From an uncultured Candidatus Saccharibacteria bacterium (GTDB lineage Bacteria > Patescibacteriota > Doudnabacteria > UBA920), in NCBI GenBank assembly GCA_964532425.1, contig CAZHIA010000007.1, positions 8 to 64,007 on the forward strand: a stretch of DNA of 64,000 nucleotides, written 5' to 3'. This document shows positions 39,566-58,077 of the stretch, piece by piece. The position numbers and the translations under genes were made by a program. Every line of letters starts with the position of its first letter. Position 1 is the stretch's first letter. The notes beneath the pieces are model-generated. The model saw only the letters and a list, made by a program, of their open reading frames with translations. It was not told the origin of the DNA and made no database searches.

Positions 39566-39643
39566 CATTCTGCCGTTTCAAATCCCGGCCTGCAAGACAG
39601 GCCGGGATTTTCATTTGCCCGCAAATCGGTATAATATGAACGT

Positions 39644-41122
39644 ATGCAGTTAACCTTGAATGAAATCAAAAGCCAGGTATACGCTAAACGGCCGATACTG
39701 GGGGAAATCATCGCTACTCATGGGCATCGCACGCTTTTGGACTATGCCAGGCAATATGCGGATAATTTAGCCGCGGTCGAGCCCGCCCGAAAACGCGATT
39801 TTGTCAATGTTGTGGCAGAAGAAGCCGGTCGGGTGCTTGGTGCGGCGACAGCTGAGAGCGTACGCCGTCATTTGAATAAATACTACTATGTTTCTACCAC
39901 CGACCACCATGGTCCGCTCAGTCATCCGTTTTTTTTGCATGCCAACCTGTTAGCCGCTGCCCCGCACGAGCACGCCGAGGCTGGCCATGAGCAATTTGTC
40001 GTATTGGCATGCAGTAATGTCTCGCTGAATAACTCCTCGTATCCCCGCGGCGTTTTATTCCACTCCCATTTGGGCGATGAAGTTTCGCTGAGGTATGTCA
40101 GTTTGTTTCCTTCCCGGGACCGGCACAGCCCGGTCTTCAACCAGCCGGCGTATTCCAGCCGGGCGGCAGCACTGTTGCGCCGCGAGCTGGAACAGACGGT
40201 GGCAGCGGGAGTCCCGCGGTCTCGTGTTGACGCAATTGTCGACCTGTTTGGCCGCGCGGCTTTTTCAGATCAGAATTACTCGGACCAAATTACCAGGATC
40301 AATGCGGAATTATGGCACATGTTTTTTCCCGTGCACAGGACTGCCCCTGGGCTGGTGACCTTGAGCCAGGAGCGTGTGACCTTGCTTTTGCTTGAACGCT
40401 ACCATCTATTCCAGGTAACTGACATACACCGGATCCTGTTTGACCCGGACATTCATCGGGAAGTGTTGGACCGTTTTGAGGGGATCCCCGGAGCCTTCAC
40501 GCTCCGCGAAGGTAGGGGAACGTTTCTGTTCTGGGGGTATGATCGCAAAACCCGATTGCGGTTCAAGCTGCTGCCGGAAGACGGATATCTTGTCTCCCCC
40601 GACCGGACGTTCCGCGTGCGGCTGAATCCGGAAGCTGTAGCTGTGGCTATCAGGGCGGGCGAACTCATCCCAAGCATGCTCGTAACCTTGCTGCTCTATT
40701 CGTGTTATTACGGGGTGAAGTGTTTGGGAGGGTTTAGCCAGGTCAACTATTTGACTTGGATGCAGCAGGCATATGCGAAAATTTTTCCTGCCGCTCAAGC
40801 CATGGGTGATACTAAAGCGCTGTGTGGCGATCTGGTGTTTGCGAATATTTCTCTCGGGAACGACGATACGGCTGCGGCAACCGGACTGGACTTTATTCTG
40901 TACGGGTCGGAAGACTCATATCAGCAGTTTTTAGATCTCTGTCATCGGCACACGTTGGCTGAAACGCTAGATCCTATCCTGCCCGTGCTGCACCGCATCC
41001 TCTATGCTGAAAGCAGTCCGGTCGAATATTCCGGCTCTACTTATGACCGGGAATTTAAGATAGTCAGGCATCCGGCCCAGCCGCTTTTTAAGGTGCGTAA
41101 CCATGCCTTTTGCCCCGTTTAA
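39644..41122 (+). CDS. Hypothetical protein (492 aa), no family recognised.
   Basis: Long clean ORF. The spacer between the pilin gene and this ORF contains a short hairpin. Confidence 0.5.
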   Translation: MQLTLNEIKSQVYAKRPILGEIIATHGHRTLLDYARQYADNLAAVEPARKRDFVNVVAEEAGRVLGAATAESVRRHLNKYYYVSTTDHHGPLSHPFFLHANLLAAAPHEHAEAGHEQFVVLACSNVSLNNSSYPRGVLFHSHLGDEVSLRYVSLFPSRDRHSPVFNQPAYSSRAAALLRRELEQTVAAGVPRSRVDAIVDLFGRAAFSDQNYSDQITRINAELWHMFFPVHRTAPGLVTLSQERVTLLLLERYHLFQVTDIHRILFDPDIHREVLDRFEGIPGAFTLREGRGTFLFWGYDRKTRLRFKLLPEDGYLVSPDRTFRVRLNPEAVAVAIRAGELIPSMLVTLLLYSCYYGVKCLGGFSQVNYLTWMQQAYAKIFPAAQAMGDTKALCGDLVFANISLGNDDTAAATGLDFILYGSEDSYQQFLDLCHRHTLAETLDPILPVLHRILYAESSPVEYSGSTYDREFKIVRHPAQPLFKVRNHAFCPV

Positions 41123-42050: not shown

Positions 42051-42254
42051 TTATGGAGCGAGGTCTGTATCGTCATGTGTGGGGAGATACTCATGTCTCC
42101 CCATTTTTATTTTGTCGGTCGTCTATAGCTTTACTGGAACCGCCTGGGGGTTTTCCGCAACACCCTATGTATGGTATGATTAATCATGCGGGATTAGACT
42201 AAAATTCCCAGAATTAAGCACAGGAAGCGCGGAGTATAATTAATTTTTACGTTC

Positions 42255-43820
42255 ATGAATGCCCGGGGCTTTTTTACCAAAAAGAAAATAATTTGGACAA
42301 TCATCATCCTTCTCATTGTCGGATTTGTCGGGTACCGCATTTCCCAGCGGGGGAAGGGGGTGTCCGGTATACAGACCGATACGGCCAAGGTGCGAAATCT
42401 GAAGTCAACAGTGCTGGCTACCGGCCAAGTAGTCTCGGGCACCGATCTTCAGCTGAGCTTTAAATCGGGCGGAATCGTGGAGCGGGTTTTAGTTAAAGAA
42501 GGTTCAAAGGTCAAACAGGGAGATGTCCTGGCGTCTTTGGACCAGCGGGACCAGCAGGCCAGTCTGACTTCGGCCCGTGGGAGCTTAGCCCAGGCCCAGG
42601 CCGGTTATCAGCGCGTCATTGCCGGGGCATCCTCTGAAGAAGTAGCGGTTTCCCAGCGTGCGGTAGATGCCGCCCAGGTGGCGCTTGAGAGCGCAAAAAA
42701 GAGCCTTGAGAATACCCGGCAGCAGCAGGAAACAGCCGTGCAGAATGCTTACTCAAGCTTGCTGAATTCCGGCTTGGCAGCGGTTGCCAGTCCGGGGAAT
42801 ACCGGCAGCGGTTCCCTGGCGGTGACCGGCACCTATACCGGTACGGACCAGGGTATGTACAAGATTTCTATTTATAGTTCCGGTTCTGGGCAGCGCTTCC
42901 AGATTTCCGGATTGGAAAGTATGGACGGCGAAGTGAAGTCGGTCCCGGTTCCTCTCGGTACCCGCGGGCTGTTCGTTCAATCCGTTGGCCAGTTGAACGC
43001 TAATGATTCCTGGACGGTTACGATCCCGAATACTATGTCAGCCACCTATGTGACCGCTTATAACGCGTATCAGGCGGCCTTAAAAGCCAGGCAGTCAGCC
43101 GTGGACGCCGCCCAATCTCAAATCAACAGCGCCCAGACGAGCCTAGACCAGGCTCGCGCCGCCCTCGACCTGAAGCGGGCCCAGGCCCGTCCGGCCGACA
43201 TCGAAGCGGCGCAGGCTCAGATTTTGACTGCTCAAGGACAGGTACAAGCCGCACAGGCAGCTTTGGAAAATACCGTCATTCGCGCGCCGGCAGATGGCAC
43301 CATTACCGGAGTCGATATTAAGCCCGGCGAACTGGCGACAGCTATGAAAGAGGTTTTCGTCCTGCAGGATATCGGCAATTTGCATGCGGAAGCCAATGTT
43401 AGCGAAGCTAATATTGCTTCGCTCCAATCCGGACAAAGCGTTGATCTGACCTTTGATGCTTTAGGCCCGGACCGGCATTTTACCGGTACCGTACAAACGG
43501 TGAACCCGGCCTCAACTGTGGTTTCTGGGGTGGTAAACTACAAGGTAACCGCGAGTCTCGACAATATTCCGGACATCAAGCCGGGTATGACCGCGAATAT
43601 GACAGTGCTGGTCGCCCAAAAGGATAATGTCCTGGCCATTCCGCTGCGGGCGGTCATAAACCGGGATAACAAGAAGTATGTACGGGTTATTACTGATCCC
43701 AAAAAGAATACGTACGAAGAACGCCAGGTCACGACCGGCTTGGAAGCGGACGAAGGCCTCGTCGAAGTAACCTCAGGCCTGAAAGCAGGAGACGTTGTGG
43801 TGACGTTTATTAAGCAATAG
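42255..43820 (+). CDS. Efflux-pump periplasmic adaptor (HlyD/MacA family) with an enlarged central domain.
   Basis: N-terminal TM helix. Lipoyl-like GDVLASLD motif. Long coiled-coil hairpin (QAQAGYQRV...AAQAQILTAQGQVQAAQAALENTVIRAP). C-terminal beta-barrel domain. First gene of an operon with an ABC ATPase and two FtsX-like permeases. Confidence 0.75.
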   Translation: MNARGFFTKKKIIWTIIILLIVGFVGYRISQRGKGVSGIQTDTAKVRNLKSTVLATGQVVSGTDLQLSFKSGGIVERVLVKEGSKVKQGDVLASLDQRDQQASLTSARGSLAQAQAGYQRVIAGASSEEVAVSQRAVDAAQVALESAKKSLENTRQQQETAVQNAYSSLLNSGLAAVASPGNTGSGSLAVTGTYTGTDQGMYKISIYSSGSGQRFQISGLESMDGEVKSVPVPLGTRGLFVQSVGQLNANDSWTVTIPNTMSATYVTAYNAYQAALKARQSAVDAAQSQINSAQTSLDQARAALDLKRAQARPADIEAAQAQILTAQGQVQAAQAALENTVIRAPADGTITGVDIKPGELATAMKEVFVLQDIGNLHAEANVSEANIASLQSGQSVDLTFDALGPDRHFTGTVQTVNPASTVVSGVVNYKVTASLDNIPDIKPGMTANMTVLVAQKDNVLAIPLRAVINRDNKKYVRVITDPKKNTYEERQVTTGLEADEGLVEVTSGLKAGDVVVTFIKQ

Positions 43821-55963: not shown

Positions 55964-57061
55964 TTACCTACTGAGGATATACTGCTGCCCTCCAAGATTT
56001 CTAATCCGGCCTTTCATCTCCAAAAATGTCAGTGCCGAGGTTGCGTCGGCAGGGGAAAGTCCAGATTGCTTAATAATCTCATTGATGTTGGTGGGCTGCC
56101 GCGTAATGACTTTTAGCAATGCGCTCTCGGCGGGGCTGTCCCCGAACATGTCTTGGACAGAGCGCTGGTCTGGCAGGGTATTAAGATTGAGATCTTCGAA
56201 AATGTCGTCGGCCGATGTCAGCGGCCGCGCGCCCATCTTGAGTAAATTGTTCGGTCCCTGGCTTTGCGGGGAATAGATGGGACCGGGAACGGCATAGACG
56301 GTGCGGTCCTGCTCCAAAGCAAAGCGCGCGGTAATGAGCGATCCGCTTTTTACGTCGCACTCGACCACTGCCGTAGCTGTACTCATACCGGATATAATGC
56401 GGTTGCGCGCTATGAAGTGGTGTCTGAGCGGCGGCATGCCCGGCGGATACTCGCTCATAATGGCACCGCCGGCTGCAATAATTTCGTCAGCCAGATACTG
56501 GTGCTCTTTGGGATAGAAAGAGGCCGCATCAAGTCCGCCGCCCAACACCGCTACGGTGCGCCGGCCGTTCTTTGCCGCGATGCGTTGGACTTCGCTGTCG
56601 ACGCCATAGGCCAGTCCGGAGACGATGGTGACGCCGGCATGTACGAGCGGTTCGATGAGATATGTAATAGCTGCCCGCCCGTACCCGGTGATCTTCCTCG
56701 TTCCAACCACGGCTACGCAGAGGTCGTCACTGTCCCGCATGGATCCTTTATAGTACAACAACTGTGGGGGAGCGGCTATTTCATTCAGGAGCGCGGGGTA
56801 GCCGGGGTCGCTTCTGCCAAGTAGTGAGATATGCTCGCGTTCAAGGCTGGCTATCTCCCGGGCCAAATCGATGCTGTGGGTATGGCTGGCTACGACTTTA
56901 GCTAAATCCGGCTCTAATCCTGCTTCTTTAAGCTCTGTCTGGCTTGCAAAATATACCTTTCGGGCGCTGCCGAAGCGTTTTACCAACTGTGCCGTGCGAA
57001 CCGGACTCAGCTGAGGCAGGAGATTGAGCGCATGGCAATAGAAATTTTCAGGGAAATCCAT
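55964..57061 (-). CDS. dprA: DNA processing protein DprA (Smf).
   Basis: Rossmann-like core (VAVVGTRKITGYGRAAITYLIEPLVHAGVTIVSGLAYGVDSEVQRIA...VLGGGLD) plus a C-terminal winged helix. Confidence 0.85.
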   Translation of the reverse strand: MDFPENFYCHALNLLPQLSPVRTAQLVKRFGSARKVYFASQTELKEAGLEPDLAKVVASHTHSIDLAREIASLEREHISLLGRSDPGYPALLNEIAAPPQLLYYKGSMRDSDDLCVAVVGTRKITGYGRAAITYLIEPLVHAGVTIVSGLAYGVDSEVQRIAAKNGRRTVAVLGGGLDAASFYPKEHQYLADEIIAAGGAIMSEYPPGMPPLRHHFIARNRIISGMSTATAVVECDVKSGSLITARFALEQDRTVYAVPGPIYSPQSQGPNNLLKMGARPLTSADDIFEDLNLNTLPDQRSVQDMFGDSPAESALLKVITRQPTNINEIIKQSGLSPADATSALTFLEMKGRIRNLGGQQYILSR

Positions 57062-57116
57062 AGTCTTTTATAGAGGGGAAGTGTTAAAAACCTAATAAAA
57101 CCGTCTATTTTAGGCC

Positions 57117-57145
57117 TTGACAAATTCTCGAAATAGGAGTATAAT
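57117..57145 (+). promoter_or_regulatory. Perfect consensus sigma70 promoter TTGACA, 17 nt, TATAAT.
   Basis: ccTTGACAaattctcgaaataggagTATAATattg, read directly. No protein-coding gene follows on this strand before the terminator at 57436..57459. Confidence 0.7.
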
Positions 57146-57151
57146 ATTGAT

Positions 57152-57440
57152 ACTGAAGTTGTAGTACCTTGTATTAGCACCCAGTGCCCTATTTGCAAGT
57201 CGCAAGAGCCGGTATCATCCCTCCTACTACTGGCTTGAGCATTAAGCAAAGGTTTGTAGGCGTCTGTCTGCAGCCTTTCACTTGCAAGTGGGGTTCTGGG
57301 TGGTATTTTTTTAGGAAGACAAACCCTACCGGGTTTTTCTTCCCAACCATTTCAACTTCGTCGAAATCCCATCTTTTCCGGAGAGGTTTTTCTTTGGCAC
57401 GGAGTGAATCCGATGCCAAAGAAATCTACAAGAATTAAAA
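57152..57440 (+). ncRNA. Candidate novel structured non-coding RNA (about 290 nt) transcribed from the consensus promoter to the GC hairpin terminator.
   Basis: Long-range helix CACCCAGUGCCCUAUUUGCAAGU paired with ACUUGCAAGUGGGGUUCUGGGUG. Internal hairpin GCCGGUA...UACUGGC with a CCCUCCU loop. A 5' GAAGUUG / 3' CAACUUC closing pair. No convincing ORF: the only one uses a GTG start and lacks an RBS. Not recognisable as 6S, RNase P, tmRNA or SRP RNA. Confidence 0.35.
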
Positions 57441-57459
57441 AACGCCCATGGGCGTTTTT
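57436..57459. terminator. Bidirectional terminator AAAAAACGCCCA-TGGGCGTTTTTT shared by the candidate ncRNA (+) and pth (-).
   Basis: Perfect stem ACGCCCA/TGGGCGT with an A-run before and a T-run after. Confidence 0.8.
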
Positions 57460-58010
57460 TAATTGGCAGCAATAAAATTTTTAATTTGTTCAGCTATCTT
57501 CGGAAAGATCTCCGAATTCAGCATCATGAGTTCTTCATCGGTGAACCTGCTCAGGACGAAGTCAGAAGTTTCCATCGGACTTTCTGCGGGCCGGGCTTCC
57601 ACGCCGATGCGGATGCGGTGGAAATCCTGCGTTTTAATTTCCTCGATAATACTCTTAATGCCATTATGTCCGGCAGCTGATGAGCTGTCCGTGGACCGGA
57701 TAGTGCCAAAGGGTAAGTCTTTGTCATCATGAATGACGAGCAGATCTTTGGCCAGGTCCATCTTATAGAAGTTGCAAATAACCTTCAAAGCTTGTCCTGA
57801 GTCGTTCATATACGTCTGCGGCTTCATGAGAATGATTTTTTCGTTATTGCTGCCGAGCGTATAGGTTTCTGACTTGAATTCATGGCTTGGGCGCGCCTCC
57901 ATAAAGCCATCGCCATCATTCAAGATAAAATCTATGGCTAAAAAGCCCGCGTTGTGGCGGGTGTATTTATATTTTTCCCCGGGATTACCGAGTCCGACAA
58001 TGAGTTTCAT
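57459..58010 (-). CDS. pth: Peptidyl-tRNA hydrolase.
   Basis: MKLIVGLGNPGEKYKYTRHNAGF...HNGIKSI, the classic Pth signature. Confidence 0.9.
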   Translation of the reverse strand: MKLIVGLGNPGEKYKYTRHNAGFLAIDFILNDGDGFMEARPSHEFKSETYTLGSNNEKIILMKPQTYMNDSGQALKVICNFYKMDLAKDLLVIHDDKDLPFGTIRSTDSSSAAGHNGIKSIIEEIKTQDFHRIRIGVEARPAESPMETSDFVLSRFTDEELMMLNSEIFPKIAEQIKNFIAAN

Positions 58011-58077
58011 GGGAGTATTATAGCAGTTTCAGCTCTTGCTGATAAGAGCCGACATCGAGGACTTTGGGGGCGAGTAA

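Follow-up and report, generated by a model that had tools for sequence, protein, structure and literature searches.

The spacer between dprA and pth in a 64,000-nucleotide (nt) stretch of DNA from an uncultured Candidatus Saccharibacteria bacterium (GTDB lineage Doudnabacteria; UBA920; contig CAZHIA010000007.1, positions 8 to 64,007; the whole stretch is referred to here as the window) almost certainly contains a real, functional gene for a structured RNA. The conserved core of this RNA, module 1, is a 135-nt three-way junction of the helices P1, P2 and P3 that we found at 35 distinct chromosomal loci in Candidatus Doudnabacteria and relatives; in the window it is followed by an optional 3′ element, module 2 (Table 1). 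Module 1 is a previously undescribed RNA family of the general kind of stand-alone structured small RNAs, and no report of this RNA was found in the literature. Our best guess as to its function, which draws on features of the sequence and to which we assign a probability of about 35%, is that it is a trans-acting RNA that would pair with Shine–Dalgarno (SD)-type sequences through the loop of P2.

A covarying three-way junction

The closest homologs of the Pth protein encoded in the window (60–73% identical) come from metagenomes, and those that are named belong to Candidatus Doudnabacteria or the 'Patescibacteria group'. On their contigs the gene order is der-pth-[250–440-nt spacer]-dprA, followed by capA or topA, and the spacers can be aligned only over a central block of ~135 nt. 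A metagenome search with a pattern built from this block (TCATCCCTCCTAN{12,26}AAGYAAAGG) retrieved 39 loci, of which nhmmer recognized 31 as true homologs, the other eight being chance matches as judged by nhmmer or the covariance model. Four further loci, reached through more distant Pth proteins (47–49% identical to that of the window), also contain the block, with scores of 73–97 bits against covariance model R1. Module 1 of the window itself scores 142.7 bits (E = 4e-36) and is the sole same-strand match to R1 there. One copy is present in the window and one per locus, which makes a repeat or mobile element improbable as far as the 64 kb of the window and the loci extend.

The fold was derived with RNAalifold from 31 sequences, and pairs were counted on the 35 distinct sequences aligned to R1; the two agree. 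Standard pairs occupy 97.0% of the 1674 pair cells in the 35 chromosomal sequences. Covariation among related loci had been named as a check in the original prediction, a reading of the window made from its letters and open reading frames (ORFs) alone, and it is clearly present: both partners have changed, with compensation, in 31 of the 48 pairs, the values observed for module 1 were reached by 0 of 500 column shuffles, and sliding the 3′ partners by 1–3 columns leaves only 38–45% paired. G.U pairs make up 16.8% of the pair cells, and the complementary strand would pair only 81.3%; this asymmetry, together with the orientation of promoter and terminator, identifies the plus strand as the RNA.

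P1, which closes the junction, is the long-range helix with G.U wobbles that had been noticed in the window by eye, and P2 is the inner GCCGGUA/UACUGGC hairpin described with it. Both are backed by compensatory changes, with 14 of 25 P1 pairs changed on both sides and such changes in all eight pairs of the P2 inner stem; P3 has them in 8 of its 13 pairs. Covariation is free in P2 and the outer half of P1; in the inner half of P1 the sequence (CCUAUUUGCAAGU) is conserved as well. The joining strands measure 1 nt (J1/2), 5–7 nt (J2/3) and 0 nt (J3/1), and the junction trinucleotide AAG at 57244–57246 is invariant. A further helix that had been proposed, between a 5′ GAAGUUG (57155–57161) and a 3′ CAACUUC (57353–57359), was rejected since it is absent from both the minimum free energy (MFE) and centroid folds and neither segment is conserved in the other loci. 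Examination by eye gave no consistent sequence support for a kink-turn in the internal loop of P2 or for a pseudoknot between loop and junction.

The exposed CCCUCCU loop of the original prediction is that of P2. Its 10-nt core AUCCCUCCUA is invariant in 35/35 chromosomal copies and in both phage copies described below, including ten distinct chromosomal copies (6 + 4) that were found through Pth homologs alone and not through the loop pattern. The core is predicted to be unpaired in the MFE and centroid folds, and it stays constant while the identity of the flanking proteins drops to 46–49% (Pth) and 36–44% (DprA).

The loop sequence AUCA..CCUCCU can be likened to the 3′ tail of 16S rRNA, which we take to be GAUCACCUCCUUA. 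The wider segment 57202–57227 reads AAGUCGUAA...AUCAUCCCUCCUAU in six homologs and AAGUCGCAA in the window. AAGUCGUAA...AUCAUCCCUCCU resembles the universally conserved 16S rRNA sequence, presumably AAGUCGUAACAAGG...GAUCACCUCCUUA. As the helix topology differs and no small-subunit (SSU) rRNA model matches, this likeness may be due to chance and serves us as no more than a lead for the idea of mimicry discussed below.

Table 1. Coordinates of the features discussed, in window numbering unless a locus is named.
Feature	Position	Strand	Description
Sigma-70 promoter	57117–57145	+	TTGACA 57117–57122, 17-nt spacer, TATAAT 57140–57145; 12/12 match
5′ leader	57152–57172	+	Short, not conserved; holds GAAGUUG
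Module 1	57173–57307	+	Three-way junction P1-P2-P3, 135 nt, conserved core
P1, 5′ arm	57175–57200	+	25-bp closing helix with one 1x1 mismatch
P1, 3′ arm	57280–57305	+	ACUUGCAAGUGGGGUUCUGGGUGGUA; several U.G pairs, C.A mismatches on the other strand
P2 hairpin	57202–57240	+	2-bp base, internal loop, 8-bp stem (57207–57214 with 57228–57235), 13-nt loop
P2 loop	57215–57227	+	UCAUCCCUCCUAC; 13 nt, core AUCCCUCCUA resembles anti-SD
J2/3 joining strand	57241–57245	+	AUUAA, then the G that opens P3
P3 hairpin	57246–57279	+	13 pairs, 4-nt loop GUCU 57262–57265; no linker to P1
U7 run	57306–57312	+	Directly past the GC-rich base of P1
Module 2	57309–57444	+	Optional 3′ module; two covarying hairpins around a C/U-rich linker
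Module 2, hairpin A	57314–57343	+	Followed by a small variable hairpin
Module 2, C/U-rich linker	57364–57379	+	AAAUCCCAUCUUUUCC
Module 2, hairpin B	57389–57424	+	7-nt loop in CGGAGUGAAUCCG; then UCUACAAGAAUUAAA and the shared terminator
Terminator	57437–57460	both	AAAAAACGCCCATGGGCGTTTTTT; palindromic, bidirectional, intrinsic; common to the RNA and convergent pth
dprA	55964–57061	−	Upstream flank, divergent from the RNA
pth	57459–58010	−	Stop codon 57459–57461; convergent to the RNA
Leaderless-looking starts	58017–58045; 57062–57075; 39620–39646; 42232–42257	− (58017–58045)	
Phage copy 1	L081 594–726 = L074 9724–9856	+ (L081), − (L074)	
Phage copy 2	L082 152–284 = L077	+ (L082)	

A transcription unit with its own promoter and terminator

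As had been predicted, the 397-nt spacer of the window holds a perfect TTGACA-17-TATAAT promoter that points from dprA to pth and a strong bidirectional terminator. The MFE fold shows the terminator as a hairpin of 14 bp, the 3′ arm of which overlaps the stop codon of pth; a simple scan did not list this hairpin. The stretch bounded by the two is structured, in line with the same prediction. The plus strand of 57152–57466 folds to an MFE of −136.4 kcal/mol, against −81.5 ± 4.4 kcal/mol for shuffled sequences (z = −12.4; 0/100 shuffles as good), and the minus strand to −116 kcal/mol only.

Since three 12/12 sites occur in the window in all, the weight of the promoter lies in its conservation and not in its perfection. 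A promoter scoring 10–12/12 lies upstream of the RNA in 31/31 loci examined, in the shared form TTGACAAAA...AGGAGTATAAT and with the −10 box ending 10–200 nt 5′ of P1. From the promoter of the window we infer a transcription start near 57152; in seven loci the predicted start is just 3–5 nt before P1. Across the loci the leader ranges from ~3 to ~195 nt in length and has no sequence conservation. High expression of the RNA is suggested by a single feature, namely the conserved consensus promoter. The RNA promoters of all loci are alike beyond the hexamers, sharing an A-rich spacer and an AGGAG that abuts TATAAT (AGGAGTATAAT). In the window AGGAG is found directly 5′ of TATAAT, and GGAGTATAAT (57130–57145) recurs at one other promoter-like site (42232–42245). 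This feature may be a lineage-specific extended −10 element.

In most loci a canonical terminator, a GC hairpin with a U-run, lies ~5–45 nt past P1, so that the minimal product of the gene is ~170 nt. Hairpins of the form AAAACGCC-loop-GGCGTTTTTT, similar to the terminator of the window, are located 3′ of the RNA in L005, L006, L027 and L038. The original prediction of a single ~300-nt transcript holds as regards a structured non-coding stretch and has to be revised as regards its unity, the stretch being a composite of the 135-nt core and an optional 3′ module. Module 2, which in the window scores 120.9 bits against covariance model R2, is present in only 5 of the 35 loci (the window, L006, L012, L030 and L037); L037 has it twice, in tandem (1858–1988 and 1994–2098). 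Among the five sequences 14 of 25 pairs show compensatory changes, and variants of the linker include AUCCUUCCC and CUUUUCC. There is no separate terminator hairpin after P1 in the window, where the U7 run comes next and then module 2. This run, which is not kept in the four other module 2 loci, may act as a leaky intrinsic terminator and give rise to a short isoform of ~160 nt. A promoter and a terminator of its own, the lack of a co-directional next gene and a covarying fold are marks of an independent small RNA gene, and the locus shows all of them.

Coding capacity and known RNA families

An 84-codon ORF starting with GTG does occur at 57184–57438, among overlapping ORFs of 76–84 codons. 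Any given frame is free of stops in at most 6 of 31 homologs, the variable columns are distributed as 27/26/29 over codon positions 1/2/3, and the core contains indels of 1–2 nt. With no shared frame and such even variation over the codon positions the ORF is spurious, and the non-coding reading given to this region at the outset is borne out by the homologs. A small protein, whether from this ORF or from antisense ORFs, was rejected on the grounds that the frame is not conserved and there is no third-position bias.

Nothing but tRNAs, two of them in the window, was returned by Rfam 15 at gathering thresholds, for the window and for 18 related loci alike; at E ≤ 10 and with permissive filters over the region 56950–57600, nothing overlapped module 1, and ARAGORN detected no transfer-messenger RNA (tmRNA). 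These scans concur with the earlier statement that the cores of 6S, RNase P, tmRNA and signal recognition particle (SRP) RNAs are not recognizable here. The description '6S-like', in turn, had to be abandoned, as the RNA is a three-way junction with joining strands of 0–7 nt, has no large central bubble and matches no 6S model. Module 2 gave sub-threshold Rfam scores only, for His_leader (RF00514; 27.7 bits vs a cut-off of 49) and mmgR (RF00519; 21.4 bits vs a cut-off of 41). A riboswitch or cis-acting leader was also rejected: the terminator follows ~5–45 nt past P1 in most loci, and pth is convergent wherever it is present. Exceptions to this layout are the phage copy, which lies ~25 nt 5′ of a co-directional ORF, and L056, in which a CYTH-domain gene lies downstream on the same strand.

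Gene neighbourhood

In the set derived from the search pattern, pth and dprA flank every homolog whose contig reaches far enough, and at all chromosomal loci of sufficient length the RNA adjoins dprA in divergent orientation, with a gap from the RNA promoter to the dprA start codon as small as ~30–55 nt. In L056 (4558–5322) the CYTH-domain gene stands between pth and the RNA, ~95 nt downstream of the latter, and the RNA is still next to dprA despite this insertion. In L040 a DprA-like N-terminus, read by eye, is encoded upstream of the RNA and divergent from it; pth was not seen in the ~1.4 kb available downstream. A DprA search of genome contigs brought up nothing but a Lachnospiraceae locus of 36% identity, which is unrelated.

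Where the spacer varies, from the promoter to P1 and from the RNA terminator to pth, it is packed with lineage-specific repeats, some short and in tandem, others long and inverted. On the pth side of the RNA there are TACTAA/TACGAA units in L022, L035, L010, L046 and L025, TACGAA units in L003/L005, AATTTCC tandem repeats in L018/L026 and GATTGACAA repeats in L002/L032; repeats also occur in the 5′ leaders of L002, L020, L046, L032 and L049. The hairpins formed by these repeats are very stable, reaching about −57 kcal/mol for 170 nt.

A copy in one phage lineage

Scanning IMG/VR with a relaxed pattern yielded 20 viral loci, 18 of which are chance matches. The remaining two have a full-length, diverged module 1 (99.8 and 89.4 bits) on two near-identical ~62-kb contigs that come from different samples and represent one phage lineage. 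The phage copy is ~70% identical over the core. In P1 it retains CCU/GGGU and has compensating bases elsewhere, and both AUCCCUCCUA and the junction AAG are unchanged. It sits among co-directional ORFs in a cluster of glycosyltransferase and sugar-epimerase genes, 6.5 kb from a portal gene (Pfam Phage_portal, 1.8e-26; PHROG portal, 3e-42). It should be noted that in both contigs the RNA is only 150–600 nt from the contig end and inside an apparently truncated gene.

No promoter or terminator of its own was found for the phage copy, no pth or dprA was found nearby, and no integrase was noted in the 19 kb of phage DNA examined. The RNA is missing within 10 kb in 11 related phages (portal proteins 52–79% identical), which argues that the phage copy is a sporadic capture, and the core has no BLAST match among GenBank phages.

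Discussion

The RNA described here is comparable to several groups of bacterial RNAs. SD regions are bound through C-rich hairpin loops by RNAIII and the Rsa RNAs of Staphylococcus and by RsaE/RoxS, and also by the 'cuckoo' CcsR RNAs of Rhodobacter and Rhizobiales and the alpha-r8/mmgR RNAs. With these, which display CCUCCUCCC loops in CcsR and UCCC loops in RNAIII and the Rsa RNAs, the present RNA shares a promoter and an intrinsic terminator of its own, which make it a stand-alone gene, and a CCUCC-type motif that is exposed by a hairpin loop in module 1 and by a linker between hairpins in module 2; the layout of module 2, a hairpin, a C/U-rich single strand, a second hairpin and the terminator, is similar to that of mmgR. 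It differs from them in that there is no homology of sequence or structure, in that module 1 is far more structured and conserved, and in that pairing is in our case only a prediction. As a lineage-restricted RNA of orphan function that is defined by covariation, is likely abundant and has its own promoter and terminator, it resembles the Bacteroidales-1, Chloroflexi-1 and raiA motif RNAs, from which it is set apart by fold, sequence and its origin in the candidate phyla radiation. With 6S RNA it has in common that it is small, stable, highly structured, conserved in its lineage and driven by a strong promoter, whereas the rod with a central bubble by which 6S RNA mimics an open promoter is missing, and no 6S match was obtained at E ≤ 10. 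Phages carry tRNAs, tmRNA and Y RNAs, and ROOL and GOLLD are often phage-borne; as in those cases, the phage copy is a full-length homolog of a chromosomal RNA among phage auxiliary genes, although it occurs in one phage lineage only and lacks its own promoter and terminator.

The proposal that the RNA pairs with SD-type sequences would work as follows. The Y-shaped 135-nt RNA is encoded on the plus strand behind the conserved promoter, is extended in the window by module 2 up to the terminator shared with pth and is not translated; the U7 run may add the shorter form. The rigid junction would display the single-stranded AUCCCUCCUA of the P2 loop, which would then pair with the purine-rich GGAGG(G) ribosome-binding sites of some mRNAs, block binding of the 30S subunit and possibly recruit RNase III, and the C/U-rich linker of module 2 could act as a second such seed. 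The loop motif CCCUCCU has the same sense as the CCUCC anti-SD core of 16S rRNA and is therefore able to pair with GGAGG(G) sites, and strong SD sequences, e.g. AAAGGAGGG and GAGGAGGAU, are present upstream of some genes in the window.

Several observations weigh against this proposal. No ribosome-binding site with extended complementarity to the loop (TAGGAGGGATGA, ≤2 mismatches) was found in 324 kb of related DNA, which is a small part of any genome, and matches to the loop complement in the window are at chance level. Of 47 ORFs called crudely in the window, only ~9 have an SD-like motif, and pth, dprA and others have instead a TATAAT-like box ~6–10 nt before the start codon and no SD sequence; the closeness of these boxes to the starts suggests leaderless mRNAs. 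Moreover, the deep conservation, the 71% of paired bases and the constant junction nucleotides are more typical of RNAs that are bound by protein or constrained in three dimensions than of base-pairing small RNAs, which evolve fast, and no chaperone is known.

The missing targets, the low use of SD sequences and the depth of conservation make a protein-binding RNA, i.e. a ribonucleoprotein (RNP) component or decoy, a close rival of SD pairing, if in itself a rather doubtful one. Here, the Y-shaped scaffold would present AUCA..CCUCCU in imitation of the single-stranded 16S 3′ tail (GAUCACCUCCUUA, as we presume) and so bind or titrate a protein with affinity for this tail or for C-rich single strands; possible partners are the KH domain of Era, bS21, bS1, IF3, a KhpA/B-type protein and nucleases or toxins directed against the anti-SD sequence. 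A loop, a junction and an inner P1 that are deeply conserved amid otherwise free covariation form a pattern typical of RNP RNAs, the consensus promoter in all loci is reminiscent of stable housekeeping RNAs, the anti-SD sense of the loop and the lack of identifiable mRNA targets fit equally, and capture of an intact copy by a phage would suit a role in host takeover or as a decoy. On the other hand, the only consistently adjacent gene product is DprA, which is not known to bind such an RNA and does not neighbour the phage copy, and the likeness to the 16S tail comes down to 4 + 6 nt with a 2-nt insert and is matched by no Rfam SSU model. A bolder version, which we consider unlikely, would make module 1 a lineage-wide housekeeping RNA that mimics the 16S 3′ tail and globally tunes the initiation of translation in an organism with both leaderless and SD-led mRNAs, by sequestering SD leaders or by titrating factors that bind the 30S tail, and that a phage has captured as a tool for takeover.

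The constant adjacency to dprA could also mean that the RNA is tied to this gene, its promoter controlling or insulating dprA through competition or supercoiling, or the RNA itself regulating competence genes. The divergent arrangement, the gap of down to ~30–55 nt and its persistence in L056 and L040 speak for such a tie, which we nevertheless hold to be improbable: the der-pth-RNA-dprA block is conserved throughout the lineage, so that adjacency may simply be inherited, an interplay of promoters leaves a covarying 135-nt fold with an invariant loop unexplained, the loop is not complementary to the 5′ region of dprA, and the phage copy has no dprA nearby. It is very improbable that the RNA is a diverged 6S, SRP, RNase P, tmRNA, 5S or Y RNA or an rRNA fragment. 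Such an origin would account for the single copy, the consensus promoter and conservation across the lineage, but no Rfam 15 gathering score was reached in the window or the 18 related loci, 57173–57307 remained uncovered even at E ≤ 10, ARAGORN reported no tmRNA, and the 6S central bubble, the GNAR loop of SRP domain IV and the P4 sequences of RNase P are all lacking. Least credible of all, and largely refuted, is that there is no RNA gene and that the region encodes a small protein, consists of DNA hairpins or repeats (MITE/REP-like) or is a phage attachment site. The overlapping ORFs of 76–84 codons, the hairpin-forming repeats of other spacers and the presence of a homologous segment in a phage, as at attachment sites of the tRNA type, could be cited in its favour. 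The frames are, however, closed in most homologs and show no third-position bias, the window has one copy of the region, the fold with its G.U pairs is strand-specific, and promoter and terminators are conserved in matching orientation; the phage segment, for its part, is full length and ~70% identical instead of an identical 3′ fragment, with no integrase noted in 19 kb.

Regulatory and structural RNAs are barely known in the candidate phyla radiation, whose members have tiny genomes, few recognizable regulators and no routine cultivation. In this setting, an RNA with unusually strong comparative support has retained its consensus promoter throughout an entire class whose flanking proteins drop to less than 50% identity, and its constant loop core, its uptake by a phage and its conservation mark it as functionally important. 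The alignments and covariance models are ready for an Rfam family. If the loop acts on ribosome-binding sites, as in the SD-pairing proposal, the RNA would offer global control over translation where, as appears to be so in this lineage, leaderless and SD-led genes are mixed.

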